Shown piece by piece: positions 5,606 through 41,365 of a DNA stretch of 64,000 nucleotides. How positions within the stretch are numbered: the stretch's first letter is position 1; the number at the start of each line of letters is the position of its first letter. The DNA comes from an uncultured Chloroflexia bacterium (GTDB taxonomy: Bacteria > Chloroflexota > Anaerolineae > CG2-30-64-16). The position numbers and the translations under genes were made by a program. The stretch lies in the NCBI GenBank assembly GCA_963774265.1, contig CAVZDU010000005.1, positions 32,001 through 96,000 on the forward strand, read 5' to 3'. The notes beneath the pieces are model-generated. The model searched no databases and was not told the DNA's origin. It saw nothing but the letters and a program-made list of their open reading frames with translations.

Positions 5606-7591
5606 TCAGCGCGCGAGTTTGAGTGACGGATCGCCCAACAGATTGAACGTCAGCAGGATGTCGCGCACGCCACCGGCCTGATCGGGCAGCGCCATTTGCG
5701 CGTCGAGCACGATATCGCCCAACGAGCGCGTGCCTGGCCTGGCCAGCGCATCGGCCAGCCCCAGCGCCAACAGCCGCTGATCAGTCAGCACCGCCGCACT
5801 GCTCGGCACCAGCGCTGCGACCGCGCCTCCGCCCGCGCGGCGTAGCAGCACCTCGCTCAACGAGACCGTGGTGGGGTGCTCGAAGAAGCCGCTCAGGCAG
5901 GTCACCGTGAAGACGATCGGCAGGCGCCCGGAATTGTCCAGTTTCGCCGCATCCTCTACGTCGAACACCTTTTCCTTGGCCCACAGCGTCACGCTGCCGT
6001 GTCCGAAGTAGCCGATCAATCCGGCGCCGTCCCGAAAGCTGGCCCCCAAAGCTGCGCGGGCGTTCGCGCCGTCGCCCTCGATGGTCACCTGCTGCGAGGT
6101 GTAGCCCAGGCGGTTGGCGAACGCGGCCGCTTCCTCGGCGAAGCCCGGCTCATCGTTGTCCGCGACCAGCAACACGTCCGATCGCCACCTCAGGTCGCCG
6201 GCCTGGCGCTCGTAGGCCAGCGTCTTCTGCACCATAATCGCCAACTGCTCGGCGGTCTGCGCCGGGAAGCGCCCCACGGCGAAAGCGGGTCTTGTTGTCG
6301 GCCCGTCGTCGGGCAGCGCGTACCACACATCCGAGCCGGTCCAGCCCGAGAAGGTCGTGTAGACGCTCCGGGTCGGCACGAGATCGCTTTCAGTCCCCTT
6401 CAGCCAGCCCATCGGATCGTAGCTCGCGTCGCCGGCCAACAACAGGTAGGCTGGGGCCGGCGCAGTCCACTTCTGCCGGGCGTGCCGCATGAGCGCCTGG
6501 AGGGCTGCGGGATCGATGCGCCCGTGGCTGAACGCGTCGTAGACCTGCTCGACATCGAGCACCGCGACGCGCAGCCCCTGCGCCGTGCGCGCTGCAACCA
6601 ATGGCTTGAGGGTATCGCGGAACTGGGGCACGGTGATGATGACGAGGTCCGCGCCGCCGGGCCAGTCGGGCAGCGGATTCTCTGTGGTGGCCGCGATGGC
6701 GACTGGGGTCAGCACCGCGGCCGCATTGGCGGCCGCATCATCCGGCGCGGGCGTGCGGGGGTAGGCTATTTCCACCCACCGCAGATGCAGCGAGTCCGCG
6801 GCCGCGCCGGTGTCGCCCGGTGCGTCGATGACCAATTGATTCTCGTCCGGCTTCAGCACGCCGGCCGGGATGAGGGCGGTGACAAGGTGCGGACGCGCGC
6901 CATCCCACGCAGCATCAGAAATAAGCGTTCCGTTGAGGCTGATGAGGAGCCGGTGATCCGGGTCAACAGGCGCAGACGACTTGCTGATGACGAAGACCCG
7001 CAGCTCGCCGGGTCCCGCAGTCATGCCCGGGGCAGCGAGTGTGATTTTCGCTTCGGCCGGGGCGAAGAGCGTCTGCCAGTACCAGCGATCGGAGATCGCT
7101 TCGGCCTGGCCATCGTAAGCCAGGTCTCGTTCAAGACGGACGGTGGCAGTGACGACGCCGGTCGTTGAAACCGGCGTTGGCGTCGCTTGCGGGCGAGGCG
7201 CGGTCTCTGCTGCGCCCTGGGTTGCCCCTGTGACGCGACGCAGCCAGTAGACGTTGCGGGGCGTATAGGAATCGGAAGAAAGCCGCAGGCCATGAAAACG
7301 CACGGCAGCGTCACGGCCCTGGCCCACCAACTCGAACGCGATGGGCTGCCCTCCGACCGATAGCGCGAGCTGATCGGCGGTGGCTGACGCCAGGTCGAAT
7401 CCAGCCCTGGCCAGCTCCGCGGCCGTCACCTGGTAAATGCCATCTTCCTCCAGGCTGATCTTGACCGCGGACACGCTCTCTGCCGGCGGCGCAACGCACC
7501 CCGAGAGGAGGGCGACAAGCGCCAGGCCAAGGAACGCAAGGCCGATCGGGATCGAGCGGGAGTAAGTTCGGACATTGACCATAGAACTCAA
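5606..7591 (-). CDS. C25 family (gingipain/PorU-like) cysteine peptidase, lipoprotein
   Basis: Lipobox LLSGC; G+Y.VT..EL N-terminal motif, YLLLAGDASYD, VGRFPA, GHGS and TVTC His/Cys dyad, FNLLGDP. Confidence 0.88.
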   Translation of the reverse strand: MSSMVNVRTYSRSIPIGLAFLGLALVALLSGCVAPPAESVSAVKISLEEDGIYQVTAAELARAGFDLASATADQLALSVGGQPIAFELVGQGRDAAVRFHGLRLSSDSYTPRNVYWLRRVTGATQGAAETAPRPQATPTPVSTTGVVTATVRLERDLAYDGQAEAISDRWYWQTLFAPAEAKITLAAPGMTAGPGELRVFVISKSSAPVDPDHRLLISLNGTLISDAAWDGARPHLVTALIPAGVLKPDENQLVIDAPGDTGAAADSLHLRWVEIAYPRTPAPDDAAANAAAVLTPVAIAATTENPLPDWPGGADLVIITVPQFRDTLKPLVAARTAQGLRVAVLDVEQVYDAFSHGRIDPAALQALMRHARQKWTAPAPAYLLLAGDASYDPMGWLKGTESDLVPTRSVYTTFSGWTGSDVWYALPDDGPTTRPAFAVGRFPAQTAEQLAIMVQKTLAYERQAGDLRWRSDVLLVADNDEPGFAEEAAAFANRLGYTSQQVTIEGDGANARAALGASFRDGAGLIGYFGHGSVTLWAKEKVFDVEDAAKLDNSGRLPIVFTVTCLSGFFEHPTTVSLSEVLLRRAGGGAVAALVPSSAAVLTDQRLLALGLADALARPGTRSLGDIVLDAQMALPDQAGGVRDILLTFNLLGDPSLKLAR

Positions 7592-8532
7592 GGTTGTCGG
7601 GAACGCATATACAGCAGCGCCGCAGCCAACAGCCCGGCCAGCCCGATGGCGCTGCCGCCGATCACCCAGGCAAGTGCTGTGTTCCTTCCACTCTGCGCCG
7701 CTGCCTGCGAGGCTGCGTCCGGCGACGGTGTGGCGCTCGGGCCCGAGGCCTCGAAGATGCTTGGCGTGCTTTCGCGTGGCGGCCGCGGCGTCGCGGTTTC
7801 CAGGCCTGCAGGCTGGACCTGGGGCGTTGGGGTCAGCGCCGGCAGTTGAGTGGGCGCCGGCTCAATTGGAGCGGGAACGACGCTGGCCGGCGCTTGTGGG
7901 GCTGTGCCGGTGGGCGTCTTCACCGACGCAGCCGGCAGGGACGTTGCCGTTCGCCGCACGACGGGGGGCGCGGTAGACTGAACGCCTGGAAGCGGCGTGC
8001 CGGATGGAACGGCCGGGGTGTTTGTGAACTGCCGTGTTGCCGTCGGCGGCGGCGTGTCAGTCAGAGGGATGCCAGTTATCGTAGGGCGCGAGGTCGCGGT
8101 CGGATTCCTGGTGACCGTGGCCGTGGCGGTAGATGTTGAGGTGTCGGCGGGCAGATCAATCCCGGCCCAGATTGGCCCGAATTGTGACGTGCCCGCGTTT
8201 GACAGTTCCTCCAGGAGGTAGAAGTACCTGACCCCACTCGTCACTGTCAGATCAGTGTACTCGTAGATTGCGCCGGTGACGACGTTGCCTTTTGGACCTT
8301 GAGCATCGATGGGCGTCCCCCAACTGGATGGCGAAGCGATCTGAGCGCGAAAGAGCCGAAAGCCAGAGGTATCCAGTTCGGTTGCAGTCTCCCACACGAC
8401 CAGGATGGAATTGCCTTGGTGCGCGCTTGCCTCAAAGCGCACCAGGGTTACGGCGGCCAGAACGGTGTGAACAGGCACGACCAGACACAACACAGCCATG
8501 ATCATGACGGCCAGTAGATGTTTACGGTGCAT
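7588..8532 (-). CDS. Membrane-anchored protein: signal peptide, AVTL/WET Ig-FN3-like domain, Pro/Thr-rich linker, C-terminal TM with basic tail
   Basis: MHRKHLLAV...VLA|AVTLVRFEA...VVWETATELDTSGFRLFRA...YEYTD......YFYLLEEL; ends LAWVIGGSAIGLAGLLAAALLYMRSRQP. Confidence 0.75.
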   Translation of the reverse strand: MHRKHLLAVMIMAVLCLVVPVHTVLAAVTLVRFEASAHQGNSILVVWETATELDTSGFRLFRAQIASPSSWGTPIDAQGPKGNVVTGAIYEYTDLTVTSGVRYFYLLEELSNAGTSQFGPIWAGIDLPADTSTSTATATVTRNPTATSRPTITGIPLTDTPPPTATRQFTNTPAVPSGTPLPGVQSTAPPVVRRTATSLPAASVKTPTGTAPQAPASVVPAPIEPAPTQLPALTPTPQVQPAGLETATPRPPRESTPSIFEASGPSATPSPDAASQAAAQSGRNTALAWVIGGSAIGLAGLLAAALLYMRSRQP

Positions 8533-8561
8533 GTCGATGTTTCTACTCCCGGGCGCGAACA

Positions 8562-10964
8562 TCACCGCGTGACCACCGGCAAGAACAGTCTCGTTGGCGA
8601 GGCCGGCAACCGCATGGCGGGATCGCCAAACAAGGTCATCGTGTCGATCAGGTAGTGCTTGCCATACACTTGGCTGAACTGCTGCTTTGCGATGGTCAAC
8701 GCAACACCAACCTCTCGTATGTTGTCTTTGAACATAACGTCGAGAAGGATCTTCCGGAATGCCAGCTGGTGCGACGTTGTGCCCAAGCCGGACGGCGAGA
8801 CGGCGGCAATGGAGCCGCCCCCGGCGTGGCGCTGCATCAGTTCCGCGATGCTGAACCTCGCAGGGTCCGGATGTGCGAAGTAGCCATCGAGACAGTTGAA
8901 GGTCATGATCAGGGGCAGCTTCTCGCCATTTACGAGGGCAGGGATGTGGGAGCTGCGCCAGATGCTTTCGTGAGTCCATCGCTCCGGCGCGCCGTGTCCG
9001 GTGAATTGAACCATGAAGGCGCCGGCCTGGAGCGCGTCCGCGAGGGTCGAGTGGGTTGCCGCGATCTGCTCGGGAGTGGCAGGTGTGACGGCATCGCCGG
9101 GCAGGTACGCACGCACCACCTGGAGATCCGTTGGGGTATAGCCGGCGATGATCTCGTCGGACACTGCGGGAAAGTCGCCGGAAGAGTCCGGATTGTCGGC
9201 CACGAATAGCGCGCGGCGCTGCCAGTCCGCAATGCGCAGGTTTTCGTCGTAAGAAACGATCTTGTCCACCACGGTTCGCGCCTCGGCCAGTGTATTCACG
9301 GCGAGCCGGCCCACCGCAATCTCAGGCACCCTGTCGTCATCGATATCACCGAACTGGGCATCTGCCGGCACCTCGCCCTGCCATGGGTCCACCCACGCTA
9401 AGAAGGGCGGAATGTGCTGGGGCTGCAGGGGGTAGACTGCTTGATTGTTACCCTTGAAGTTCCAATGGCCGTCGCCGACGAGGGTCAAGTAAGCCGGCGC
9501 AGGCGACTGCCAATTGGCCACGGCCCATTTCATCATCACCTGCACGGCCTTTGGATGGAAGATGCCGTCGTTAAACTCATCGTACGCGTCCTGGATATCG
9601 ACCACCAGGGCACGGCGGTCATGAGCGCGATGCCACCCTGCCAGTTGCTCTGCCGCGACCCTTAGTTCAGCCGAAGTAACGATAACTGCGTCGGCGCCTC
9701 CCGCGGGATTGCGTAACCCGGTGGGGGGCCGTATCCGGATCGAAGCTGGCGCCTCAGCGGTGGTTGCGGTTTGTATCCAATACCGGCTGCCGACGGTGGT
9801 ATTGACGCGGAACCGGACGGTCACATCGGGACCTGATGCGGGTGGAGCGGATAGACGTACAGGATGCTTTGTGTCGGTGATATCCCAAATGAGCGTCTCA
9901 GGGCTTGACCAGCCTGATGCGGCGTACTCCTGGATTCCTCCCTCCTCCGATCGGAAGTCTAGCCGGTCCCCCCACGCGCGGAAAAGGCGACGATAATCCA
10001 GCTCCCAATAGTTCACATAAATGTCGTCATTGGGGACGCCGGGAAGCAGCATGGCGCTCACTGTCAGCGTGTTGGTTCCATGTGTCAGACCTCCTGCGGG
10101 AACAGGAGCGTTGAACACCTTTCGTACGGAGAGGCCATCCCAATTCTCGTCGAGGATTGTCGCACCGTTTAGCGTCGCCACCGTGCGATGGTCGGGGTTC
10201 AGATTCCACACGTATGCGTTGCTGATTTCCTCCAGGCGCAGCGTGGCGGCCGCGGCCGCCGGATATGGCACCACGTAGGGCAAATCGGCGGTGGCCGTCT
10301 GAGCCAGGATCCCGTTCCAGATTTGATCGGGTTCGGATCGCCTCTCGACGGCCGGTGCTGCGGCCCCTGCAGATAATGCCACCGGGCTCAAGCGGCTCCA
10401 AAACCACGTGTCCTGTGTATCCAAGCCCAGGGTGTATAATGTCCACCAAACATTCGACTCCTCGGCTCGTAACGTGGTCGCAAAATCCGTAGGCGGGGTG
10501 CGATCGTATTGAGGTGTGGCATCCCGCACCTCGATGCGCGGCCCCGTGGCGCCCCCGATGTCCAGCCAATACACGCGTTCATCCGTGTACTTCTGGTCCA
10601 TTTCTGGCCCGCGGAACTTCTCGCCGAAGAAATAGAGCGCATCACCCCCGTCGAATATCCCGTTGCCATCATCCGTCACATGGATTGCGACAGGTTGCCC
10701 CAGGCTCGACAGGGCGAAAGTGTTTGGGTTGGCGCCCGCGAGATTTGGATCGGCGTTCGCCAGATCGGCCGGCGTGACCTTTGTGATGCCGTCTTTGACG
10801 ACGCCAATGCGGACGCGGACAGGCCCTGCGGCCTCGGTACGCCGCGCGGTTGCGGGCGGCAGCATGGCAGTCAGGGCCAGAAGCAGGGCCAGGACAAGGG
10901 ATGCGGACCGGGAAAAGCGAACGGCCGGCCGCACCTTGGAGTGCATGATCGGTGTTAGTTGCAT
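8562..10964 (-). CDS. C25 family (gingipain/PorU-like) cysteine peptidase, secreted; C-terminus RLFLPVVTR
   Basis: DGITKVT..DL, YFFGE...YTDERVYWL, YLTLVGDG, IAVGRL, FTGHG and TFNC dyad, LFGDP. Start codon approximate (ORF open to 11030). Confidence 0.88.
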   Translation of the reverse strand: MQLTPIMHSKVRPAVRFSRSASLVLALLLALTAMLPPATARRTEAAGPVRVRIGVVKDGITKVTPADLANADPNLAGANPNTFALSSLGQPVAIHVTDDGNGIFDGGDALYFFGEKFRGPEMDQKYTDERVYWLDIGGATGPRIEVRDATPQYDRTPPTDFATTLRAEESNVWWTLYTLGLDTQDTWFWSRLSPVALSAGAAAPAVERRSEPDQIWNGILAQTATADLPYVVPYPAAAAATLRLEEISNAYVWNLNPDHRTVATLNGATILDENWDGLSVRKVFNAPVPAGGLTHGTNTLTVSAMLLPGVPNDDIYVNYWELDYRRLFRAWGDRLDFRSEEGGIQEYAASGWSSPETLIWDITDTKHPVRLSAPPASGPDVTVRFRVNTTVGSRYWIQTATTAEAPASIRIRPPTGLRNPAGGADAVIVTSAELRVAAEQLAGWHRAHDRRALVVDIQDAYDEFNDGIFHPKAVQVMMKWAVANWQSPAPAYLTLVGDGHWNFKGNNQAVYPLQPQHIPPFLAWVDPWQGEVPADAQFGDIDDDRVPEIAVGRLAVNTLAEARTVVDKIVSYDENLRIADWQRRALFVADNPDSSGDFPAVSDEIIAGYTPTDLQVVRAYLPGDAVTPATPEQIAATHSTLADALQAGAFMVQFTGHGAPERWTHESIWRSSHIPALVNGEKLPLIMTFNCLDGYFAHPDPARFSIAELMQRHAGGGSIAAVSPSGLGTTSHQLAFRKILLDVMFKDNIREVGVALTIAKQQFSQVYGKHYLIDTMTLFGDPAMRLPASPTRLFLPVVTR

Positions 10965-11096
10965 CGTGAAACCTTCGAAGGAAAAATACGCCAGACGCAC
11001 GCCCGGATCAAGGCGAGGCGTCTGGCGCAACAGTGCGAACGTAGGGCTGGATCGTTAGCACAAGTATATCGGTCGCAGGGGGGGTTGTCAAATGAT

Positions 11097-13419: not shown

Positions 13420-13535
13420 CGTCGCGCTCGATCATACCCTTGGTTGGCCGAACGGACAAAGTCCGGTCTGCCGCGCGATCCACACGCGGGGGCTGCATCG
13501 CGACCTACACGTGGGGGCCGTGGCGCAATCCACAC

Positions 13536-13809
13536 GTAGGGGCGAGTGTGGCGCCGGCGAGAAGACCGGCATCCAGGCGTCCCACATCGGACCACATACA
13601 TCCGCTACCACAAACCTTTCTACGCCGCACTCGCCCTGGTCGGTCGCCGCGAACAGTGCATGGACGGCGTGCGCGATACGTGGTTCGATGCGGCACGCGC
13701 CGCCAACAAGGGCGAGTGCGGCGCACAGATGTTTGTCGTGGCGCATGTTTGCGATCCCATCCACCACGCGCCGTATCGTGGGTCGCGCCGGCGCCACACT
13801 CGCCCCTAC
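13536..13809. repeat. REPIN-like unit: inverted GTAG-family REP pair
   Basis: GTAGGGGCGAGTGTGGCGCCGGCG at 13536 and its reverse complement ending 13809. Confidence 0.85.
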
Positions 13810-13813
13810 GCAA

Positions 13814-14338
13814 TTACGCACCGGGGATTTGGGGGTGGTGTTCGTCGTGCGGCCAGTTGAGGGGGTTGTCGTGGATGTATTTGCGAATCGCGTCCAGATT
13901 GGCGTCGGAGCGGATGATGCGTTCGTAGTAGTTTCTCTGCCAGACCTGGCGGCCGGTCACGCCTCGGATCCGGTTTATGCGTTGGGTCGTGGTTGATTTG
14001 TATGCGCCAATGATGGCGCCCAGGGAGCCGGTCGGCGCGCCGGCGGGAGGCGTGGACGGAAGGGATGGGGCGTGAACGGGGTTGAGCCTGGCTTGGTTGA
14101 TGATCAGGATGCCGTGCAAGTGATTGGGCATCACCACCCACGCATCGAGGGACACGTGCGAGAAGCGCTTTGGTAGTCGCAGCCAGAAGGATTCCGCGAT
14201 CCCCTGCAGGATGGCATCATCAAACAGGCATTCTCGCCCCTGTGTTACGATCGTCACGAAATAGGCGCCGCTCTGCGCATAATCATATCCTGGCAGCCGG
14301 ATCGAATGACGATCGTGTTTATCAGGATCGTACCTCAT
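13814..14338 (-). mobile_element. REP-associated tyrosine transposase (RAYT, Y1 HUH family)
   Basis: RHSIRLPGYDY...AYFVTIVT, VVMPNHLHGI (HUH), WQRNYYERIIR, YIHDNP; flanked by REPs. Confidence 0.92.
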
Positions 14339-14396
14339 TTCTGGCGCTCCTCCGGCAGGACCACAGCATCACATTTGGGGGCGGCGAGAACCACGC

Positions 14397-14730
14397 GTAG
14401 GGGCGAGTGTGGCGCCGGCGAGAAGGCCAACATCCCGGAGCCCTACATCGGACCACGCACATTCTCTACCACGAACCTTTTTGCGCCGCACGCGCCCTGG
14501 TCCGGTCACCGCGAACGATGCATCGGCGGCGTGCGCGATGCCTGGTTCGATGCGACATGCGTCTCGCCCTTGTGGCGTGACGTTCGGCGTGTGCGATGCG
14601 TGGTTCCATTCGACGCGCGCCGCAACGAGAGGGCGAGTGCAGCGTACGGACGTTCGCCGTCACACATGTGCGTGATCCCATGCACGGCGCGCCGCCGACA
14701 GAATCGCGCCGGCGCCACACTCGCCCCTAC
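14397..14730. repeat. Second REPIN-like unit, homologous to 13536-13809
   Basis: Same inverted REP ends and a recognisably related spacer (CACATCGGACCAC..., GCGCGAT..TGGTTCGATGCG). Confidence 0.85.
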
Positions 14731-14770
14731 ATGATGACGCGGCGCGGACGGTGTGCGTGGATGACGGAAC

Positions 14771-14836: not shown

Positions 14837-15548
14837 TCAGGCCGTGCGGCGGCGGCTGATGGCCAGGCCGGCCACGACGAGCAACGCCACGGCGCCGAGG
14901 CCGGCATATAGCGGCCAGGTGGGGACGGGATCGCCGGCGGCGAAGGTGGAGAGTGTGACAGAGTTGGCATCGTACATGCTGAGATCGGCACTGCTGAACG
15001 TCGCATTCGCTCCGCCAAATGGGCAGCCCGTCATCATGACGAACAATGTCCCGCCCGAGCTGGCAGGTTTGGCATTCAAATAGTTGATCAAGCCCGGAGC
15101 ATTAGTACTGCTATCAAATACAAGTTGGCTACCGGAAATCGACGCGGTTCCAAGAGTCCCATTTGAAGCGATCGGGGGGAAAGTTGTACCACCATTCAAG
15201 CTGGCCTTGGCCCAATTCTCACCAGAATCGGCGATTCCATACAGCGTAAACGACACCCCCGCTCCAGGATCAACTCCTGCCAGAGCGAGTGTTAATTTGG
15301 TAGGCTTTGGGGTGCCGCTGATTGACCCGTTCGACATGCTCCATTGCATGTAGACCGCCGTCTTGGGGTTGCATGCAGAAAAAGAACCTGTCGCCGTCGC
15401 GCTCAGCACGTCGGGATAGGGAGTGGAGTCACCAGAGGCTGCAGTTGCAGCCTGATCAGGGCCACCAGAATTGAGCTGAGCCAGCACGTGTCCCCGCGGA
15501 GAGAACCAAGAGACTTATGATGGCGAAAAGAAGAATTCGTTTGTACAT
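14837..15548 (-). CDS. Surface protein with C-terminal 'NSVTLSTFAA' + TM + RRR anchor (1-nt frameshift after the signal peptide)
   Basis: AAGGAG RBS; MYKRILLFAIISLLVLSAG signal then a frame change into ORF 14837-15487; ends DANSVTLSTFAAGDPVPTWPLYAGLGAVALLVVAGLAISRRRTA. Confidence 0.7.
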
Positions 15549-15589: not shown

Positions 15590-16306
15590 CTAGGGCCAGG
15601 AAGTGTTGGCTTTTAAACAGACCATGTAAGGATACCCGGGCTGTACTGCAAAATCCGTTCCATGCGGGATGACGTTCGGCAGCCAGTAGTCCGTAAAATC
15701 CTGGTCGGCGGCCTGCCACTGTAGCACTTGGTCCACCACAGAGGGCCCACCCATCGCAGTAACCAGATCCGATGCGTGACTGATACCAGCGTTCCATTGG
15801 TCCAGTGGAATGATGATGTTGTTGTAGGCACAATTCGGACTCGCGCCGACCAAATTATTGTACTTTACATCTCCAACCGGAGGAACGTCGCCAACAATCG
15901 AGAATACGGATGGTGCAGTCGAATCAAGCCGGATCCAGTATACGCCTCCTACCTCAAGCGAGAAGTTAGCTCCATGAGGAATAGTATTGGGTAAGTAGTA
16001 ATCGGTGAAGTCCTGAGCAGCAGCATTCCAATGCAGGACCTGATCCACTGTCTTGGGCTGTCCAACTGGCGCCTTGTTGAGGTAATCCACCAGCGCGACA
16101 GCATTCGGAATGGAACCTGTGGCATCCAGGGGAAGGGCAACAACGTTATATCTATACGTTACATCCGGCGCGTCCGGCGCAGCCGCCGCGGACACAACCG
16201 GCGCGGCCGCCAGGGGCGCACCCGCGTTGGGCAGCGCCAACACGGCCAGTGCGCCCAGCCCAAGGAGCAGGGCGACGGCGAGGACTGTGGTCAAAACTCG
16301 TTTCAT
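15590..16306 (-). CDS. Secreted protein with an internally duplicated ~90-aa domain
   Basis: AAGGAGG RBS; signal peptide; two copies of YN...PLD...VDQVL.W.AA.QDFTDY.LPN.IPHG..F....G..Y. Confidence 0.8.
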   Translation of the reverse strand: MKRVLTTVLAVALLLGLGALAVLALPNAGAPLAAAPVVSAAAAPDAPDVTYRYNVVALPLDATGSIPNAVALVDYLNKAPVGQPKTVDQVLHWNAAAQDFTDYYLPNTIPHGANFSLEVGGVYWIRLDSTAPSVFSIVGDVPPVGDVKYNNLVGASPNCAYNNIIIPLDQWNAGISHASDLVTAMGGPSVVDQVLQWQAADQDFTDYWLPNVIPHGTDFAVQPGYPYMVCLKANTSWP

Positions 16307-16387: not shown

Positions 16388-16416
16388 ATTGTACATCCCC
16401 CCGCGGTGGTTGTCAA
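16388..16416 (-). promoter_or_regulatory. Sigma70-type promoter for the 16306 gene
   Basis: Minus strand TTGACA-17 nt-TACAAT. Confidence 0.7.
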
Positions 16417-16573
16417 TTGGCATTAAGTAGCATAAGTCGGGATGACTTCGGCATTCCTCGGAAGGGAACCAGCAAGGGCTACTGCTCGTGAATGCGGCCC
16501 AGTCCATGGGAGTGGCGCCGGCCTGGCAACCAGGGAATCCATCGTCCCGAAGGGGACGGTCACAATGTGGAAT

Positions 16574-16600
16574 AGGGCTGCACAATTGAGGTGCAGCCCT
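16574..16600. terminator. Perfect 10-bp hairpin, possible terminator
   Basis: AGGGCTGCAC-7 nt-GTGCAGCCCT. Confidence 0.5.
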
Positions 16601-16721
16601 TAACCTCTACCGGAAGTTGAGATCGCCCGCGACCACGGAGGCATATACGTCCCACCTGCGGGCTCTCTTGCCACCTCGAAAGGCGAGCGGAACAACGAGA
16701 AATTTCGCAGGTGATGGCGTC

Positions 16722-16850
16722 CTACTTGTTGGCGCCCGTCAGATCAAGCGGATCCTCGATGCCAAGGCGAGTACCCGCCCGGACTTCCAGCACTGACTCG
16801 TAGACCACCGCGGGCTCCTCGTATGGCTTGCGCTCCAGTTTCTGCTCCAT
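16722..16850 (-). CDS. 42-aa RiPP-like precursor peptide with lasso-type leader (not in the ORF track)
   Basis: AGGAGG RBS; MEQKLERKPYEEPAVVYESVLEVRAGTRLGIEDPLDLTGANK*; YxxP motif; directly downstream of the PqqD gene. Confidence 0.8.
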   Translation of the reverse strand: MEQKLERKPYEEPAVVYESVLEVRAGTRLGIEDPLDLTGANK

Positions 16851-16883
16851 AAATTCCTCCTAAAACTGATTGTGACACTACAA

Positions 16884-17210
16884 CTACAAAAGCGGTTCGT
16901 CGAGGCTCAGCAGCCCTCGTCCGGCCAGGTCACGGCAGAAAGCCAGGGCATCCGCCTCTGCCTTGTCCAGGCTGACCTCGTACTCGACGGCGATCACCCG
17001 GGCCATGCCGGTCACCGTGTGTTGGCCATCGGCCAGTTCCCACAGCCTGGCGCCGACTCCGTTCAACACGACAACTTTGCCCTGCACCGGATGAACCAGG
17101 ACCGCCTCACCGTCGAGCGTGCGGCTGGCAACGCCCGATACACGGCGGGGATGGTCGCTCAACACCATGCCTCTACCCATCTCGACGGTTCGTTCCGGCG
17201 TTGATGACAT
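16884..17210 (-). CDS. PqqD-family RiPP recognition element (RRE)
   Basis: R.LDGEAVLV......VLNGVGARLWELADG..TV..MA..IA.EYEV....AEAD...F...L...GLL. Confidence 0.9.
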   Translation of the reverse strand: MSSTPERTVEMGRGMVLSDHPRRVSGVASRTLDGEAVLVHPVQGKVVVLNGVGARLWELADGQHTVTGMARVIAVEYEVSLDKAEADALAFCRDLAGRGLLSLDEPLL

Positions 17211-18042
17211 CCCAAAACGAGTCGTCTTTGCGGAAGTGCAACCGCTCTACACCTACAGTTACGACAATGTCCCGGCATCGGTCGAGCAGGCCGGGCAACA
17301 GGGCTGGCTGACTGTTGATAATCGGGCAATTGGCCGTCAGCTCTGCTGTTGCCGCCCCGGCGCTCATCGGCGAAACAAAGACGTCCGGGTCCTGAGCTAG
17401 CTTGTAAATCGCGCGAATCGAACCGTTGTCAAGTTGCCCGTCGTGGTCCCCGGTCTCCAGGTTCCAAAAGGGCGTGCCGTATGCCCACCAGCCTTGAGCC
17501 TCTCGACGTAAGAGGATCAAGTCGTCCCCTAGCGCTGTCGCTCGCCGGCTTGCTCTTGAAAGCGAAACAACGGTTGACTTGCCGCTGCCGCTCTGTCCGA
17601 TGAACAGATAGATGCCTGCGCCTGCTTTGAGGGCCGCACAGTGAACCAACAGGCCGCCGGCATGATAGGCGAACAGCGCCAACGCGACACGCAGGAAATA
17701 CTCGATTTCACGCGTCAAAGCATCGGAGCGCACGCGCAACGATGCACGTGCTTCGAATGGGGCAATCATACCACAGAAATTGCTGCCGTCAAGTAGGAAT
17801 TTGTCCCCACTCGTCCTTAAGATGGCGTCCAGGAGACTGGCGCTCGCCTCGGTGCTCGCCTCAGCGCCCGCCTCAGCGGCGATCTCAACGATCAGGTCTG
17901 CCGCCTGGCCCTCATCCGGGCTGCAAAAAGGCGCATAGCGCGGCGCGATGGCTGCGCCAAGCGCCGGCGGATGAAGTTCCAGCCTGAGGCGCCAGCCGGC
18001 CAAATTCAAATACATCGTGTGGTGGTCCATCGCATCGCGCAA
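17173..18042 (-). CDS. HPr kinase-related P-loop protein (ScmC/PadeK-like)
   Basis: GGLLVHCAAL, Walker A GQSGSGKST, LGDD, YGTPFW, C-terminal LHFRKDDSFW. Confidence 0.78.
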   Translation of the reverse strand: MRDAMDHHTMYLNLAGWRLRLELHPPALGAAIAPRYAPFCSPDEGQAADLIVEIAAEAGAEASTEASASLLDAILRTSGDKFLLDGSNFCGMIAPFEARASLRVRSDALTREIEYFLRVALALFAYHAGGLLVHCAALKAGAGIYLFIGQSGSGKSTVVSLSRASRRATALGDDLILLRREAQGWWAYGTPFWNLETGDHDGQLDNGSIRAIYKLAQDPDVFVSPMSAGAATAELTANCPIINSQPALLPGLLDRCRDIVVTVGVERLHFRKDDSFWDVINAGTNRRDG

Positions 18043-18048
18043 ACGCGT

Positions 18049-18512
18049 TCAGCCGGTATGGGCGCGCGTCTTCTGCAGCAGCCGGCCACCGCGCCACCAG
18101 ACCACGAGCACGAGCAGCGCAAGTCCCCCCAGCACCAGGCCGTGGCGCCAGTCCAGCCCGCCGGCGCGCACGCTGATGGGGCCGAATTTGTTGATCGCGC
18201 CGTTGCGCTCGACCTCCTGCAATTCGTAATAGTAAGTCACACCCGCCTGGGCCGTGCGGTCGACGTAGCTGTACTCTCCGCCGGTCATCGGATCTGCTGA
18301 CGGCGGTATCAGCGCATCATTGATCTTGGCCTCGAACGGCCCATCGGGCGAGAGGCCGCGGTAGAGGTTGAAGCCGGCCGTGTTCATCTCGGTTTCGGTC
18401 TTCCAGGTGACGCGCACCGGCGCACTGCAGCCCCCGAGCACCAGGACGAAGATCAGCACGGCCAGTAGGGTGGAGGGTGAGCGGTGGGTGGCGAATGACC
18501 TATGGACACTCA
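18049..18512 (-). CDS. Lipoprotein-like protein with WxT-E-GF Ig/FN3-like module and C-terminal TM
   Basis: VLGGC lipobox, VRVTWKTETEMNTAGFNLYRG...YSYVD......TYYYELQEVE, hydrophobic tail then WWRGG. Start uncertain. Confidence 0.72.
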
Positions 18513-20392
18513 AAGCGAAAATCCCTTTCCAGTGTGGTTTCCTCACGGCATGCACCGGCTGCCACTGAAAGAGCGCTGCCCATGGCGCCGGCCTGTTTGC
18601 GCACGAAAAGGCGGTAGGGCCTGGCCGGCACGCCCGGCGGCAGGCGGTAATGAAGCGCCACCAGGTGCTGTTCGCCAGGTTTGAGCACGAAATCGCCCGT
18701 GAAAATGGTCGTGTCGCGCACGCCGGCCTCGGTTGCCGGGTCGTTGAGCCCTTCGATCGAAATCAACTCGCTGCCGCCCGGCGCGTAGATGCGCACGTAA
18801 CTCCAGTAGCAGCGCCGCGCCAGGTCATCATACGTCGCACCGTAGCGCGGGCGCGGTCGCAAATCGGCTCGGAACCGATGGGGGCCGTGTGGGTGTAGGT
18901 CAGCTTCAGCGAGGCCACCAGGCGGCCGTCCTGCTCCTCGACCGTGTAGTCGATCCGCTGCTGCACGAGCAGGTTTGCCTTGTTGAAGCCAACGTTGCTG
19001 TCGACCACAAGCAGAAAGTCGCTGTCATCCGGCGGACGCACACCGCCATCCCAGCGTCGCTCGGCCAGCAGCGCGGCCAGAGCCGGGTCGTCCACCGCCA
19101 CTTGCAGATTGCGCGCCTCGAGCGCGGTGTAGAGCGCCCGTGCGAGGGCCGCCATGTCTATATCCGCGCCGCTTTGCAGCGGTCCGCCTTGCACCCGGCC
19201 CAACGCGGCCTTGACCAGCTCGCCCATGAAGTCCTTGCGCTGCTCCCACCAGGCCGTGCCGCCGCCGGTCTCCGGCCCGGTTTCACTGCCCACGGGCGCC
19301 TGCCAGGCGGCTTTCATCCACTGAATGGCGTTATCGCCCGTCACGGGTTCATTGATGCCGGGCACCTGGAGAGGTCCCACTGCGCCCACGAGCAGGCGCA
19401 CCGCCTCGAGATCCAGCGCAACCGCACCATCGGTCTGTATGCCACGATCCTGCAAGTACAGCGCGCGCGCCACGTCGGCAGCTTCGGGGAAATCGGGCGA
19501 CCAGTTGCTGTCACGCAGCAGCCAGAGATCCGCGGCCATGTACTTGGCCAGCGGCGCTGGCGGCGCGGTGTGGGGCTGCTCGAAGTTATCGACCGCATAG
19601 CTGTCTGCCAGCGTCAGGTCGGTGATTTTCCCCCGGTCGAACGTCACGTGTCCGGCGCCGCTGATGAAGCCGCCTGTGCCGCGCAGCTCATCGTTATTCT
19701 GGGCGAGCACGAGGTAGGTGCGCGGGCCATCGACGCCGAGGAGCGCGGGCGATCTCCGCAAGCTCCAGCCCATCGATCGCCAGCGGCAACAGCGCGTCGA
19801 GTTTCGTGAGCTGATCCGCCAGCTTCGGTTCGGTCAGCGGCGGCAGCGCTGCGCGGAGTTCGGCTGCGCGGGCCATGCCCGCGCGTGCAGCCTGCAGTTG
19901 AGGCTGCGCGGCCTGGAGCGCGTCGACCGCCTGCGGCAGCGCGTCCAGCCCGCCGCCACCGGCCACCATTTCGCCGATCGGCGCGAGCGCGTCCACCGCG
20001 GTGCGGCCCGCCGTCGACAGCGCCCCCGCCATATCGAGCAGCTGGGGCGCGATGACGATGTCCGGGCCAAAGCGCGGCGCCCAGCCCAGGTGCGGCGCGA
20101 GGCGGAGGAACGGGCCGGCCGCGGCTTGAGCCTCTTTGAGATGGGTGTCCAGGCTGGCGATATCGGCCTGAACGTGGGACAGCGATTCGAGGGAAGGCTG
20201 CGCCATGGCGGCCTGCAGCCGATCAAGGTCGGCCAGCGCAGCGCGCGCGTAGATGCCGGCGCGCGCCGCGCGCCAGCCCAGCCATCCCACCAGCGCGAGC
20301 GTCGTGACGATGAGCGCTACGGCCAGCCATCGCCGGAGGGTTTGCTCTCGAGTTTGTTCCCCCTGTGCTTCGATCATCGAGCCATGTGTCAT
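18500..20392 (-). CDS. DUF4012-domain membrane-anchored protein (frameshifted, three ORF pieces)
   Basis: N-terminal TM, helical stalk, GPRTYLVLAQNNDELRGTGGFI, RDSNWSPDFP, DSNVGFNKAN, YRLFVRKQAG. Confidence 0.75.
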
Positions 20393-20403: not shown

Positions 20404-21967
20404 TCATCGTATGACGGATAGGTCGTTGCGTGCAGGGCGCAGGCGCACCAGCACGCCGGTCTGTTCTTCGACGATGCCAGGCAGGGCTAATGCCAGGTCA
20501 TCGGCCCGATATACCGGTCGTTGAGCGGCCCATGCCGCTTGAAGTGATTCTTCCAGTGGCGCCTTCGATGGCAGCACACCCGGGTGCGTCTCGGCGAAGG
20601 TCGCGTCGTACCAGTCAAAGCCGTAGAGGTTCACGTTCAACACGGCCACATCATTCCGCTGGCGCAAACCATAGACGCCATACCACAGCGCAAATGTGGT
20701 CCGGTCGCCGGTTGTCAGGATGAGCGAGTCCGGCTCGGCCTCCGCCAGCGCAGCGGAGAGGAAATCACGTGCCTCACGGTCGCTTCGCAGATCATGGGCC
20801 GCCCAGTTGCGCACCAGCGACGCGGCCGGCAGTGCGGCCAGCAATACGATCACCGCAGCTGCACGCCATGCCGTCCCGCGCAGTCGTTCGATCGCCCAGT
20901 CGATGGCCAGGGCGGCCCACAATGCGACCGCGGCCCACGCCGGGATCAGATAGACGTTCGAATCGGTCGTATTATAGCCGATCCCGTAAATTGTGAAGGC
21001 CAGGAAGACGAGCAGCGTCGCGCGCCACCACGCGCGATCCCGCCACCGGAGCCGCCAGAGCCCGGCCAGCGCCAGCAGCAGTCCCCACGGTCCGCCGAAC
21101 TGCCACATGGCCTCGCTGATCCAGCCGAGTAGGCGTGCGGGTGCATCGACCAGGGGCAGCCCGAACGGCAGCCCTGCGTACAGCCGGCCTGAGACCGTCC
21201 ACAGGAAGCGCCCCGGCGTGACAGGATCGCCCCAGTTGATTGGCGGGCGACCTGCCGCGGCGAGGGGCAAGTAGCCGTACACGAACAGGCCGAGGAGGGT
21301 GCAAAGGCCCGCAACGGCCAGTATCCCGTCCGCCCCGAGGGATGCCCCGCCTATTCGCCCAAACCCAGGCCGCCAACCCGGGCAGGATCAGGGCCAGCGT
21401 CAGGTGGTTGCCCAGCCCCAGCCCAAGGACCAGGCCCGCGGCCTGCAGCGAACGGCCATCGGCGTCCTCAGCCCAGCGCCACATCAGCCATAATAGCGCC
21501 ACGGAGGCCAGCGCGTTGAGCGCATAGACCTCGGTGATGGTCGCCTGTCCCCACACGGCAGGTGCTGCAGCCCACGCGAGCGCGGCGACTGTACTGGCAA
21601 TCGCTGCCGGCCATGGGGCCTTCCCGATCTGGGTGACCTTCGAGGTCTCCGGCACCTCGATGGTGCCGGGAGCCGCGAGCATCCGCTGGGCCAGGTCAGC
21701 CAGAAGCGCGGCTGCCAACGCGGCGCAGATGGCCGAGAGCCAGGCCCCCGCGCGGGCGGGATCGCCGCCAAGGATAGCAATGGCCGCTCGGAGGGCAAGT
21801 TGATAGGTCGGATAGCCGGTGGGATGAGGTACACCGTGGGTTAGCGCTGCAGCGAGCAGATCGCCGCCGTCCGCGCCACCGTGCGCCCAGGTGAGCCCCG
21901 GCGCAAGCGTCAAGCCGTAAAGGGCGAACGCACCGAGGCCTGCAATGAGTGCGGGCCAGCGCCTCAC
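20404..21967 (-). CDS. DUF2723/TMEM260-like membrane glycosyltransferase (frameshifted near 21300)
   Basis: TLAPGLTW...DGGDL......GVPHPTGYPTY, ITEVYAL, GLGNH, YLPL...INWGDP. Confidence 0.8.
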
Positions 21968-22342: not shown

Positions 22343-23284
22343 TCAATCCTTGGGTTCGGCGATGACAATCAGGCGGTGGGTATTGTTGGTCGGCGGCCAG
22401 CAGGTCACAATGGTAAGGCGCTCGTCCTCAGTAGGCAGTATGTACTTGCCGTTGGCGATGCGTTGCGCCTGCGAGACGCCAGTGTCCTTCAACCGGTAGA
22501 ACCCGGTGATGGTGTAGGAATACTGCTTCCCCTGCGCGTCGAACAGCTCGATGGTTCGCCCGTTCAGGATATCCGACTTGTCGGTGAAGTTGTCGACCTT
22601 GACGCGTGTGTCATTGTCCCACGCCAGGCTGATCGGCTTGAACACCTGGCCGTAAATGTTGTTGTGCCCCGAGATGACCAGGTTGCCGGGCTCGCCGATG
22701 CCTGCGCTGTTAATGTGGTGTCCGGCAGCAGCCTCTGGGATCATCCATTGCGTGACCGGGCCGCTCGGTGTCTGAACGACCTTCCAACCCATGGGCACAA
22801 CTGCGGCATCTATCTTCAGATCGGGAATCGTCATCCGCACCGGGTCGATCGACGAAGTGCCGGTCGGTGGAGGTGCGGCCGCTGAAGCGCCTGCGGCTGA
22901 GCTTTTCGGCGGTGCTGCCGTGGCGCTCGGCGCGAGAGTCGCCGTGGCAGGCCGGCGGGTGGCAGTGACCTGCACCGGTTTGCGCGTGGCAGTCCGCGTG
23001 GCCTCAGCGACCACCGCTGCCTGGGCTGATTTGGTTTGGGTCGCCTTGGGGGCGGCCTGAGTGGGCGCCGGCGCGGTGGATTCCGCTGCAGGATCGGCGG
23101 CGACCGCTGCCGCATGGACGGTCGCGCCGGACGCGGTTTTCCGCAGCTGCGCACGCACCTGTGCGCTCTGAATCTCGGACCAGGCAAAGTAGCCGGCCAC
23201 CACCAAAACCAGGATCAGGCCCAGGCCCAGCAGGGCGGTGCCGAAGCTGCGACGTGCGGTGTGTTGCCCCATTAGTGCCTCCAC
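22343..23284 (-). CDS. Sortase
   Basis: N-terminal TM, Ala/Thr linker, IPDLKIDA, GNLVISGHNN, LTIVTCWP....HRLIV (His/Cys/Arg triad). Confidence 0.9.
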   Translation of the reverse strand: MEALMGQHTARRSFGTALLGLGLILVLVVAGYFAWSEIQSAQVRAQLRKTASGATVHAAAVAADPAAESTAPAPTQAAPKATQTKSAQAAVVAEATRTATRKPVQVTATRRPATATLAPSATAAPPKSSAAGASAAAPPPTGTSSIDPVRMTIPDLKIDAAVVPMGWKVVQTPSGPVTQWMIPEAAAGHHINSAGIGEPGNLVISGHNNIYGQVFKPISLAWDNDTRVKVDNFTDKSDILNGRTIELFDAQGKQYSYTITGFYRLKDTGVSQAQRIANGKYILPTEDERLTIVTCWPPTNNTHRLIVIAEPKD

Positions 23285-39604: not shown

Positions 39605-40216
39605 TCAGGCTTGTATTCCCACCAACACCAGTGGGACGGCCGGCACCCCTCGTCCCTGCCGGATTACGTTGTACAGTTCCCCTTCATAGTAAGAAACACC
39701 GGAGCTCATTTGCTGCTGAAGCGTTTTCATCGGCAGTATCTCGATGCCGACATCGATCTGATCGCCCACGTAGAAGGCCAGGTGCTTGACGAACAAGTCA
39801 TAAGCTACGAACGAGTATTTGCCGAACTGCACCTCGATGGCGACGCGATCTTTGACGAAATCCGTCTGGTTGTAACTGTGAATTGGGATTTCGCCTGCAG
39901 CTTCAATCGCCGCCTTCTGTTCGGCCGCACTCATGGTCAGTGTCTTGCGGATAAGTTTTTCGCTGCGCGTCACCCAGTAGCTCACTCGACTTTCACTCCA
40001 TCCTCGGGCACGCAGCAGACGATTGAAGCTGGTGTTGAGATCGACCGGGCTGTAGAGCAGCTTGCCCAGGGTTCGGACCTCCTTTGAGACCTTTGTCCTA
40101 CACTGCTCTGCGTCGACGGCTTCTATAACGGTCTGGACTTCTTCCCAAAGGGCGGGCCGTCTGACGAGGAGGAATTCGAGCCCGTTCAGGTGCGAATAGG
40201 TCTCAGCTATCTTCAT
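39605..40216 (-). CDS. Type II restriction endonuclease, BstYI/BglII family (likely RGATCY)
   Basis: YSHLNGLE, SYNQTDFVKDRVAIEVQFGKYSFVAYDLFVKH, GRGVPAVPLVL closely match BstYI as recalled; specificity inferred. Confidence 0.9.
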   Translation of the reverse strand: MKIAETYSHLNGLEFLLVRRPALWEEVQTVIEAVDAEQCRTKVSKEVRTLGKLLYSPVDLNTSFNRLLRARGWSESRVSYWVTRSEKLIRKTLTMSAAEQKAAIEAAGEIPIHSYNQTDFVKDRVAIEVQFGKYSFVAYDLFVKHLAFYVGDQIDVGIEILPMKTLQQQMSSGVSYYEGELYNVIRQGRGVPAVPLVLVGIQA

Positions 40217-41159: not shown

Positions 41160-41365
41160 GACGCCTCGTCAACCGGATCGCCTCCCGGAGGCGAGCACAG
41201 CATCGGGAATGGGTGACTATCTTAGGGCAAGTATACCCCCCAGAGATAGATCCTGCCAATGCTGCCGGCATCGCGCCACTTGTTGCTGGAGGTGATCTGG
41301 AGGGAAGGGTGTGGAATCAGGGGAGTTCCTGCTTGTGCGTATAGGTGCCCGGCACTCCGAAAAGT

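Follow-up and report, generated by a model that had tools for sequence, protein, structure and literature searches.

The stretch of DNA analysed here (the window, 64,000 nucleotides from a member of the Chloroflexota) carries on its minus strand a compact group of three genes, set among genes for peptidases, glycosylation and surface sorting. These genes encode a 42-residue peptide (A), a PqqD-type RRE (B) and an HPr-kinase-like enzyme (K). The features of the locus are as follows.

5609..7591, minus: PorU-like C25 cysteine peptidase 2 (PF01364, E=6.1e-77)
7588..8979, minus: ORF at the place of a c1-like gene between the C25 genes, assigned by position (no Pfam match)
8565..11030, minus: PorU-like C25 cysteine peptidase 1 (PF01364, E=7.8e-78), carrying a signal or anchor at its N-terminus
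14837..15487, minus: c5, secreted 216-aa protein with a C-terminal TM segment and RRR anchor
15590..16306, minus: c2, secreted 238-aa protein with no family match, conserved downstream of the cassette
16574..16600, minus: 10-bp GC-rich hairpin, without a U-tract, 3' of the peptide stop codon
16722..16850, minus: candidate precursor peptide A, 42 aa, reading MEQKLERKPYEEPAVVYESVLEVRAGTRLGIEDPLDLTGANK; putative leader approximately residues 1-25, with Y10-x-x-P13-x-V15; predicted cleavage site Ala25|Gly26; conserved hydroxyl residue Thr27; acidic, Pro/Asp/Leu-rich tail
16884..17210, minus: discrete PqqD-type RRE, B (PF05402)
17173..18042, minus: P-loop kinase-like enzyme of HprK/PEPCK fold, K (assigned by motifs and modelled fold)
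18049..18555, minus: c1, 168-aa membrane protein, ending 6 nt before K
18763..20392, minus: DUF4012 protein, in two overlapping ORFs (18763-19773 and 19694-20392)
20404..21967, minus: TMEM260/PMT_2-like glycosyltransferase, in two overlapping ORFs
22343..23284, minus: sortase (PF04203, E=1.2e-17)

The initial annotation of this DNA had drawn attention to an ORF with a strong RBS directly downstream of the PqqD gene, and this ORF is present, with AGGAGG lying 6-7 nt 5' of its ATG; most homologs also begin with ATG and have an AGGAGG-type RBS upstream. It is a real gene, far beyond chance, because pS exceeds pN in all 21 ortholog pairs compared (pS 0.37-0.79 against pN 0.08-0.24), indicating purifying selection, and because 27 of the 41 related genomes contain matches at E<=1. 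At E<=0.001 the family matches 971 unnamed database clusters, which are concentrated in one Anaerolineae family, and a single genome can contain as many as six peptide matches. Pfam and NCBIfam returned no match to the peptide, and its profile produced 0 matches at E<=10 among PDB chains. The 42-aa product of the window is also present in the protein collection, as P0048.

An alignment of 39 family members has the consensus Y-E-x-P-A-V-[VI]-Y-E-x-x-L-E-V-R-A-G-[ST]-P. Conservation is strongest in the leader columns, where P13 is invariant (39/39) and Y10, E18 and E22 are found in 37, 38 and 38 sequences respectively, and it extends across the predicted cleavage site (A25 37/39, G26 34/39, Ser or Thr at position 27 34/39). 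Residue 27 is Thr in the window copy and Ser in 24 of the 39 members; five peptides have neither. Position -2 relative to the predicted cleavage is Arg in 33/39. The C-terminal tails are variable, ending in K, Q, E, D, G or other residues, with partial conservation at Asp33 (29/39), L35 (26/39), D36 (29/39) and G39 (25/39).

The adjoining pair, proposed earlier as a PqqD gene overlapping an HPr-kinase-like gene, is likewise present. B is a PF05402 match (E=1.9e-16; 60.6 bits, with the cut-off at 23.4), and with its longest start it overlaps the kinase ORF by 38 nt. Internal starts at Met11 and Met15, which would leave an 8-nt overlap or a 4-nt gap respectively, are available, and one of these is probably the true start. 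The best NCBIfam name for B is ScmD, at 43 bits against a cut-off of 100. When its profile was compared with the PDB, the lasso protein TbiB1 was the best match (3.1e-13), and LppB (9x8z_B) matched at 2.1e-9. Asn50 is invariant in the RRE alignment and Asp87 is kept in at least 90% of rows; these residues align with N33 and D70 of LppB.

Co-folding of B with A, which the initial annotation had proposed, gave an ipSAE of 0.54, a range (<=0.60) in which 18 of 157 solved complexes pass together with both of the mismatched pairs that pass, whereas the best of three controls scored 0.00. Between runs at least 87% of contacts agreed and the partner pLDDT was at least 56; the pass mark itself is reached by 116/157 solved complexes and by 2/215 mismatched pairs. 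The modelled complex thus lends weak support to an RRE-leader pairing, although solved RRE-leader complexes exist and the pass may reflect memory of them.

K (17173-18042, minus) is weakly recognised by sequence and more clearly by fold. NCBIfam gave ScmC (E=2.3e-5, 23.9 bits against a cut-off of 125) and HprK_rel_B (E=4.5e-4), and the protein falls far below every curated family cut-off; Pfam Hpr_kinase does not match, generic AAA appears below cut-off only, and a kinase profile against PDB chain sequences retrieved generic P-loop matches only, with PEPCK at about 1e-3. In Foldseek, an AlphaFold2 model with pLDDT 92 matched PEPCK best over the whole protein (E=9e-9) and HprK/P 1knx at E=1e-5. 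All 17 aligned sequences retain H134, the Walker A motif G149-x-S-G-x-G-K155-x-T157 and D173, and D174 is kept in at least 90%. We therefore assign K, from its modelled structure, to the HprK/PEPCK fold, with catalytic-type motifs present. A bona fide HprK/P was considered and rejected, the family models being unmatched and the likeness confined to the level of fold.

A conserved family of small ORFs beside PqqD genes had been predicted, and was found. The order K-B-A was present in 18 of 36 peptide-anchored sources, with three partial and 15 orphan loci; the orphan peptide copies have the same leader and different tails. Anchoring on the kinase instead gave 36 loci, approximately one third of them duplicating the peptide-anchored set, among which PqqD occurs in 28 and the peptide in 23. 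PorU-like C25 peptidases, the FN3-like membrane protein c1, DUF4012 and sortase all share synteny with the cassette; its placement in a surface and glycosylation locus, suggested earlier from the window, is conserved in relatives. Its tightest syntenic partner is c1, directly upstream of K in 15/36 kinase-anchored loci. A c7-c1-c7 pattern, in which a c1-like gene stands between two C25 genes, recurs in orthologous loci; in distant loci the peptide gene directly precedes a C25 gene. Synteny with sortase is limited to the closest relatives.

These neighbours are themselves poorly covered by family models. c1 begins with a signal or lipobox-like segment, continues with a domain resembling FN3 and closes with a C-terminal TM segment and a basic tail; it has no Pfam or NCBIfam match, and its counterparts in the atlas are hypothetical clusters of Chloroflexota, fn3 being no more than a lead that scores 0.76. 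No match to c2 was obtained from Pfam or NCBIfam, while c5 matches GVDTG_CTERM weakly and an ortholog of c5 matches CBM96 weakly. The T9SS_sortase PorU model gives C25 peptidase 1 a score of 232 bits, below its cut-off of 420, and His679 and Cys713 are invariant in 8/8 sequences. The start of the ORF at 7588..8979 overlaps this peptidase, and its start codon or frame is uncertain. The DUF4012 and TMEM260/PMT_2-like genes are split in the window copy, their orthologs being single ORFs of 527-838 aa in the former case and reaching approximately 632 aa in the latter. Class E is the best match for the sortase, at a sub-threshold score (NF033747, 43 bits against a cut-off of 160).

The closest known system to this cassette is the family of linear polyphosphorylated peptides (LPP) of the Bacillota, LppA/B/K/S/D/N, described by Popov et al. 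(Nat Commun 2026; PMC13381572). There, the LppA leader is given as Y(-16)xxP(-13)xV(-11)L(-10)..I(-5)xF(-3)ET(-1), and Ser(+3) of LppA is phosphorylated by the HprK-like LppK, which is reported not to have accepted a Ser-to-Thr variant; the family is reported as restricted to Bacillota and its biological role as not known. Judged by motif, both precursors are short and pair a conserved YxxPxV leader at the N-terminus with a C-terminus that varies. Both systems also have a discrete PqqD-type RRE with an HprK-like kinase and no macrolactam cyclase, a hydroxyl residue two to three positions beyond the predicted cleavage site, and a surface or polysaccharide locus with one to several precursor genes (PMC13381572). 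The cassette had been called undescribed, a description that we withdraw, since LPP has the same logic of precursor, RRE and HprK-like kinase.

At LPP spacing, Y10, P13, V15, V/I16, L21, V23 and A25 fall on LppA leader positions and Ser/Thr lies at +2 (PMC13381572). In this motif-only comparison the consensus agrees with LppA at Y, P, V, [VL], the hydrophobic residues at -5 and -3 and the small residue at -1, and leaves H(-8), Q(-7) and E(-2) unmatched. The spacing from Tyr to cleavage, judged from the alignment, appears to follow LPP and not the Thr(-2) rule of lasso precursors; an alternative register, setting [LI]-E-[VT] on F-E-T, moves the cleavage two residues earlier. The family differs from LPP (PMC13381572) as follows. 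Leader positions -8/-7 are Glu-[Ala/Ser] here and His-Gln in LPP, the hydroxyl residue is at +2 and not +3, and the core is about 15-27 residues long compared to 45. The cassette lacks in cis the SpI-like peptidase (archaeal-type, LppS), the MsbA-like exporter (LppD) and the PF14907 transferase (LppN) of LPP, and the RRE profile scores TbiB1 above LppB. The host belongs to the Chloroflexota where the paper says Bacillota only, and the cassette, unlike LPP, is syntenic with PorU-like C25 peptidases and c1.

Among the window ORFs scanned there was no S24/S26 peptidase, exporter or PF14907 gene, and the ABC genes of the window are a ZnuABC-type set at 53463-56210 only. A search for partners elsewhere in the genome (84% complete), also proposed at the outset, recovered an S24-like peptidase, a PF14907 NTase and a radical SAM homolog; for the lasso enzymes it gave no B2 and a single weak match to the cyclase family. 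The NTase, the S24-like peptidase (PF00717, E=6e-4) and a kinase paralog form a trio on contig C7 (454090-456466), whereas LPP has its peptidase and transferase within the cluster (PMC13381572). PF14907 has three matches in the genome, all outside the window, and TIGR02228 reaches 17.5 bits only, on contig C1. Of 24 genomes from the same family, 19 have an S24-like peptidase; it adjoins an NTase in 9/12 loci inspected, and lies in cis in nine distant-cassette loci. Maturation in trans by the C7 trio is possible. Within approximately 5 kb of the trio a motif scan revealed no convincing small ORF with YxxP, a genome-wide PF05402 search had no match at it, and the trio may serve another substrate.

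Taken by analogy with LPP, the three genes would constitute a minimal LPP-like RiPP cassette of precursor A, discrete RRE B and HprK/PEPCK-fold kinase K, a reading to which we give slightly better than even credence. In the mechanism that we infer, B would bind the leader Y10-x-x-P13-x-V15 as an added beta-strand, and K with ATP would phosphorylate, possibly repeatedly, Ser/Thr27 of A25-G26-[S/T]27-P28. Cutting of the leader at about Ala25|Gly26 would then release an acidic phosphopeptide of 15-27 residues, rich in Pro, Asp, Leu and Gly, by a peptidase encoded outside the cassette for which the S24/S26-like enzyme of the C7 trio is the best candidate. Because the orphan copies differ in their tails but not in their leader, each genome probably uses a single enzyme set for several precursor genes; and, given the conserved neighbourhood of PorU-like C25 peptidases, c1, DUF4012 and sortase, the cell envelope is probably where the product acts. 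The chemistry with the best support is phosphorylation by the HprK-like enzyme, with Ser/Thr27 the presumed site and the cleavage position predicted by the same analogy. Thr27 of the window copy would count against phosphorylation of the LPP kind, LppK being reported to refuse Thr (PMC13381572). The earlier proposal of an RRE-dependent system making a phosphorylated peptide, or matured in trans, is thereby supported as to the RRE, stands by analogy as to phosphorylation, and is possible as to maturation in trans.

The peptide could instead govern the P-loop enzyme as a small cytoplasmic regulator or adaptor, in partnership with the PqqD-like protein; the enzyme would then phosphorylate some other target, such as a sugar, a lipid or a surface-locus protein. 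The cassette is without exporter or protease, its tightest syntenic partner is the membrane protein c1, and K matches peptide-kinase families weakly by sequence and has as its best whole-protein fold match PEPCK, a small-molecule kinase. We nevertheless consider this unlikely: a conserved leader with a variable tail, in several orphan copies and up to six matches per genome, is precursor-like; in distant relatives the cassette is extended by a peptidase and a radical SAM maturase; and the RRE residues that grip the leader Tyr and Pro are conserved.

Another reading attributes maturation to radical SAM chemistry. The SynChlorMet cassette contains ScmC and ScmD with two radical SAM/SPASM maturases, ScmE and ScmF, and so has an HprK-like and PqqD-like pair like that seen here; a literature search on SynChlorMet found no paper. 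On this reading a SPASM maturase acting in trans from a second cassette (contig C1, approximately 1,007,300-1,010,400) would cross-link the peptide and the HprK-like protein would be an accessory. In the genome a radical SAM homolog (E=4.3e-27) adjoins an HprK paralog, ScmC and ScmD are the best NCBIfam names for K and B, and two distant cassettes (L067 and L070) add a radical SAM/SPASM gene between PqqD and peptide. However, K and B fall far short of the ScmC and ScmD cut-offs, the window ORFs scanned and most triad loci have no radical SAM gene, and all other triad loci examined keep the triad without one. The radical-SAM-linked peptides have Cys in the core (two in L067, one in one L070 copy) where radical-SAM-free triads mostly have none, and at the C1 locus there is already a different YxxP peptide-like frame. 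We regard such a pathway as improbable.

Equally doubtful is a part for the peptide as substrate in surface anchoring, in which sortase or the C25 peptidases would read its C-terminal L-D-[L/P]-[T/A]-G and the peptide would be ligated to the envelope, K and B serving only to prepare it. The setting is suggestive: synteny places the cassette with a sortase, with a pair of C25 peptidases whose His and Cys are intact and with several proteins that have C-terminal TM and basic anchors, the peptide gene stands directly before a C25 gene in distant loci, and the tail columns L35, D36 and G39 are partly conserved. Against this, the peptide lacks a signal peptide, no TM segment with basic tail follows the motif, the motif is neither LPxTG nor LAxTG and is lost in many family members, sortase is syntenic in the closest relatives only, and no export route was identified. 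A variant combining this with the LPP-like cassette is a long shot: in a split, exporter-less LPP-type pathway the phosphopeptide, perhaps extended by the NTase, would not be a free product but would be handed to the C25 transpeptidases, c1 and sortase as a covalent envelope block or anchor. If true, a RiPP pathway would here supply a machine that sorts proteins or polymers.

The lasso-type label applied initially is not sustained, and the cassette is not a lasso system. A canonical lasso precursor, with Gly26 as residue 1, Asp33 as residue 8 and the cyclase and B2 encoded elsewhere, would accord with the YxxP leader, with TbiB1 as the best PDB match of the RRE and with the 1-8 spacing held family-wide by Gly26 and Asp33, but is very hard to credit given that the -2 residue is Arg and not Thr in 33/39, that ring positions 3 and 7 often hold Pro, and that the genome, at its stated completeness, has 0 matches to PF13471 (B2) and a single PF00733 match, of 24.2 bits, whose 276-aa frame lies on a different contig. 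PF13471 is found in three of the 41 relatives and in 0/20 genomes with peptide matches at E<=1e-3. Canonical lasso maturation in trans was rejected on the same grounds, there being no PF13471, only a weak PF00733 and no co-distribution in relatives. As the initial annotation had said, the window ORFs scanned include neither an Asn-synthetase-like cyclase nor a B2 peptidase or radical SAM gene. Phosphorylated lasso peptides of the paeninodin type share with the cassette an RRE with an HprK-like kinase, a [Y/W]xxP leader and a linear precursor, the HPr-kinase homolog of paeninodin phosphorylating the C-terminal Ser of the linear precursor, according to a review (PMC8498205). They differ in that no cyclase or B2 was found here and there is no conserved C-terminal Ser. 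A literature search on HPr kinase, PqqD and precursor peptide returned lasso-peptide papers only.

The LPP-like reading remains our preferred one, and our analysis adds a large unnamed precursor family, its 971 clusters centred on one Anaerolineae family, that has the same precursor/RRE/HprK-kinase logic as LPP (PMC13381572) in a pared-down and apparently split architecture. By that analogy it indicates that RRE-guided peptide kinases may reach well beyond the Bacillota; a search for literature joining HprK, RiPP and Chloroflex found no paper. The tight synteny with C25, surface-sorting and glycosylation genes offers a testable lead on the role of such a phosphopeptide, in the envelope or in biofilm.

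No role in the model accounts for the co-conserved C25 peptidases. As regards the co-transcription with surface-sorting and glycosylation genes suggested initially, a promoter-like site and a stable hairpin lie between the peptide gene and the next gene downstream, and the RNA of 16540-16725 is unusually structured (MFE -76.6 kcal/mol, z=-3.43); no canonical intrinsic terminator was found 3' of the peptide gene. The sequencing-run matches listed included no RNA run, and one DNA run, labelled as soil metagenome, contained 0.13 of the sampled words.

The cassette is a real, conserved, RRE-dependent unit of precursor and kinase, and is best read as a pared-down, possibly split pathway in Anaerolineae resembling that of the linear polyphosphorylated peptides (LPP). 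Its three genes are as follows.

17173-18042, minus strand: HprK-like ORF of 289 aa, with weak matches to ScmC and HprK_rel_B
16884-17210, minus strand: PqqD gene upstream of the peptide gene (PF05402, E=1.9e-16)
16722-16850, minus strand: 42-aa peptide ORF, reading MEQKLERKPYEEPAVVYESVLEVRAGTRLGIEDPLDLTGANK

The initial annotation described these genes accurately, both in the peptide ORF with its ribosome-binding site (AGGAGG, 6-7 nt upstream of the ATG) and in the PqqD gene, which overlaps the 289-aa ORF when taken from its longest start. The 16722-16850 ORF is a real gene. The conserved small ORF that the annotation proposed to look for does exist: when 41 related genomes, the window's own among them, were searched in six frames, 27 gave matches at E<=1 and 20 at E<=1e-3, frequently more than one each, and the cassette order recurs. 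Among seven gap-free 42-codon orthologs substitutions fall mostly at third codon positions, pS (0.37-0.79) exceeding pN (0.08-0.24) in 21/21 pairs, and an AGGAGG-type site precedes the ATG in most homologs. A 39-member profile matched 971 clusters at E<=0.001 in a collection of 5.8 billion proteins; none of these carries a Pfam domain and the names listed are 'hypothetical protein' throughout. The peptide was found in 6 of 401 genomes evenly sampled across the phylum, compared with 20 of 24 in the window's own taxonomic family; hence the peptide family is abundant yet phylogenetically concentrated. By record title, related loci come from Anaerolineae, Anaerolineales or Chloroflexota MAGs.

The family consensus is RKPYExPAV[VI]YE..LEVRAG[ST]P. 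Conservation across 39 sequences is strong in the N-terminal half (P13 39/39, Y10 37/39, E18 38/39, L21 34/39, E22 38/39) and around the predicted cleavage site (A25 37/39, G26 34/39, S/T27 34/39), while the tails differ in length and sequence but keep a high content of Pro, Asp, Leu and Gly. The window's genome has one more copy, an orphan on another contig (C3), that combines the same leader with a different tail:

C3:52359-52496 (L002 1489-1653), minus strand: orphan 54-aa peptide paralog, tail GSLLGLPDPLDLLETK

A constant leader, variable cores and multiple copies per genome are the usual signature of RiPP precursors sharing one enzyme set. The C3 copy directly follows the gene of a secreted protein (294 aa) whose C-terminus bears a TM segment and RRR anchor.

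The closest known system is LPP, described in 2026 in a paper that regards it as restricted to Bacillota (PMC13381572); the paper's supplements may bear on taxonomic range, and our literature search found no paper joining HprK, RiPP and Chloroflex. As described there, LPP precursors have C-termini that vary behind a YxxPxVLxHQxIxFETxxS leader, the RRE is a separate protein (LppB), the HprK-like kinase LppK puts several phosphates onto core Ser3, and LppS is an RRE-dependent, signal-peptidase-I-like leader peptidase; an exporter and a PF14907-type transferase are also encoded, and the clusters reside in capsule loci (PMC13381572). With Tyr numbered -16 after LppA, Pro, Val, Val/Ile, Leu and Val of the present leader occupy -13, -11, -10, -5 and -3; near-invariant Ala25 then takes -1, and the conserved Ser/Thr +2. 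By this analogy the leader would be cleaved near the Ala25/Gly26 boundary and the peptide phosphorylated at Ser/Thr27, although another register (L-E-[VT] on F-E-T) is possible and leaves the exact cleavage site uncertain. HprK homologs that phosphorylate linear lasso precursors provide a precedent (PMC8498205).

Searched against PDB chains, the PqqD profile matched the lasso RRE TbiB1 (3.1e-13) and LppB (9x8z_B, 2.1e-9), followed in order by TfuB1, PbaB1 and PqqD. LppB N33 and D70 fix the leader's Pro and Tyr (PMC13381572), and the PqqD proteins compared here keep the aligned residues (N50 in all 11, D87 in 90% or more). Co-folding of peptide and RRE, a check put forward in the initial annotation, weakly favoured a complex (ipSAE 0.54; best of three controls 0.00), with at least 87% contact agreement between runs and partner pLDDT of at least 56. 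Of 157 solved complexes 116 pass the mark applied, as do 2 of 215 mismatched pairs; both of these mismatches, but only 18 of the 157, pass with an ipSAE of 0.60 or under. The co-fold weakly suggests that PqqD binds the peptide, and since similar complexes are already solved the pass may reflect memory.

Model matches of the 289-aa ORF are weak: for ScmC E=2.3e-5 and 23.9 bits, where the cut-off is 125, and for HprK_rel_B E=4.5e-4. Its structure model (pLDDT 92) retrieved ATP-dependent PEPCK (E=9e-9, TM 0.5-0.58) and HprK/P 1knx (E=1e-5) with Foldseek; the two enzymes have one P-loop kinase fold in common. Invariant across 17 homologs are H134, G149-x-S-G-x-G-K155-x-T157 and D173, with D174 nearly so, an arrangement we take to be that of HprK/P.

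A lasso system, as the initial label 'lasso-type' implied, was rejected because the cyclase and B2 families were not found in the window's genome (84% complete) and position -2 is Arg instead of Thr. In that genome PF13471 has no match and PF00733 a single 24-bit match on another contig; PF13471 occurs in 3 of the 41 relatives and in 0/20 with strong peptide matches. The family does keep a lasso-like 1-8 spacing of Gly26 (34/39) and Asp33 (29/39), which we do not take as evidence of a lariat. The annotation was correct that the window lacks a cyclase, B2 peptidase and radical SAM gene: Pfam and NCBIfam scans of its larger ORFs revealed no Asn-synthetase-like cyclase, transglutaminase-like B2 peptidase or radical SAM enzyme, nor any S24/S26 peptidase, PF14907 transferase or MsbA-like exporter.

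Synteny indicates that the LPP-like cassette is best read as coupled to a surface-sorting locus with PorU-like C25 peptidases, and the product may act at the envelope. In close relatives the order is sortase, DUF11, TMEM260-like glycosyltransferase, DUF4012, c1 (an FN3-like membrane protein), kinase-like gene, PqqD, peptide, c2 and c5 (secreted proteins), C25 peptidase, c1-like gene and C25 peptidase; the entire set is present in the window, from 23284 down to 5609. The C25 proteins reach 232 of the 420 bits that the PorU sortase model sets as cut-off, carry N-terminal signal or anchor segments, and have an invariant His/Cys pair in 8/8 sequences. Among 36 peptide-anchored sources the kinase-like/PqqD/peptide order is complete in 18 and partial in three; the other 15 are orphan peptides, often adjoining large SdrD_B/GEVED adhesin-like proteins or Tad-pilus genes. 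Kinase-anchored loci, of which roughly one in three is also in the peptide-anchored set, include PqqD in 28/36 and the peptide in 23/36. Among cassettes that are more distant, the peptide gene can immediately precede a C25 gene, nine loci carry an S24/S26-like peptidase in cis, and two have a radical SAM/SPASM gene between PqqD and a Cys-bearing peptide.

A search of the window's genome for partners, also proposed initially, yielded nucleotidyltransferases (C7, C1) and a radical SAM gene (C1) but no PF13471. Two more HprK-like paralogs lie at these loci.

C7:454090-457828 (L036, L117, L118): PF14907 nucleotidyltransferase, S24-like peptidase and HprK paralog
C1:1,007,300-1,016,900 (L037, L072, L114, L115): radical-SAM-type second cassette

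On C7 the HprK paralog follows the transferase and the peptidase (GNSMxPT motif; PF00717, E=6e-4), and next to this conserved trio are genes for a Wzz/GNVR tyrosine kinase and a Big_5 protein. Scanning about 5 kb around the trio by motif gave no small ORF of the YxxP type, and none of the PF05402 matches from a genome-wide search fell there. The peptidase occurs in 19/24 genomes of the window's family, and in 16/20 strong-peptide genomes against 5/21 others, counts that are not independent among related genomes; of 12 loci inspected, nine have the transferase beside it and seven the kinase paralog. The C1 cassette comprises a PqqD-like frame, a radical SAM/SPASM gene (E=4.3e-27 to the maturase of L070, another locus compared), a 'KRYEAPKL' peptide-like frame (MNKKRYEAPKLKKVRLV...) reading through into the HprK paralog, and C25 peptidase genes, with a PF14907 gene nearby and several apparent frameshifts. 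Given these genes, we infer that the triad may borrow a peptidase and transferase encoded elsewhere.

Between the peptide gene and c2 lies a promoter-like site (TTGACA-17-TACAAT, 11/12 matches, 16388-16416, minus strand), which suggests that c2 and c5 may form their own transcription unit. The DUF4012 (18763-20392) and TMEM260-like (20404-21967) genes are each two overlapping ORFs in different frames, their orthologs being single ORFs of about 630 aa; these are either assembly frameshifts or pseudogenes, and comparable splits occur on C1 (~1,009,000-1,010,400) and in a same-genus genome (the L038 kinase). A 737-aa secreted purple-acid-phosphatase-like protein (Metallophos and Pur_ac_phosph_N; 11206-13419) lies inside the locus, and alkaline-phosphatase-family proteins lie near the cassette in three others (L049, L059, L062); secreted phosphatases next to a putative phosphopeptide system may be no coincidence. 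An FtsK/SpoIIIE-family ATPase (23538-24614), divergent from the sortase and kept at this locus edge in four genomes (cluster c11), could relate to export. Within 13433-14750 the conserved locus has received a REP-associated tyrosine transposase (13814-14338, NF047646, E=2.4e-20), which separates c5 from the genes downstream; the clustered repeats that flank it, both direct and inverted, are 30-120 nt long and 73-93% identical. Elsewhere in the window, 39608-42774 encodes a BglII-like restriction endonuclease paired with an N6/N4 DNA methylase, after which comes a DDE transposase.
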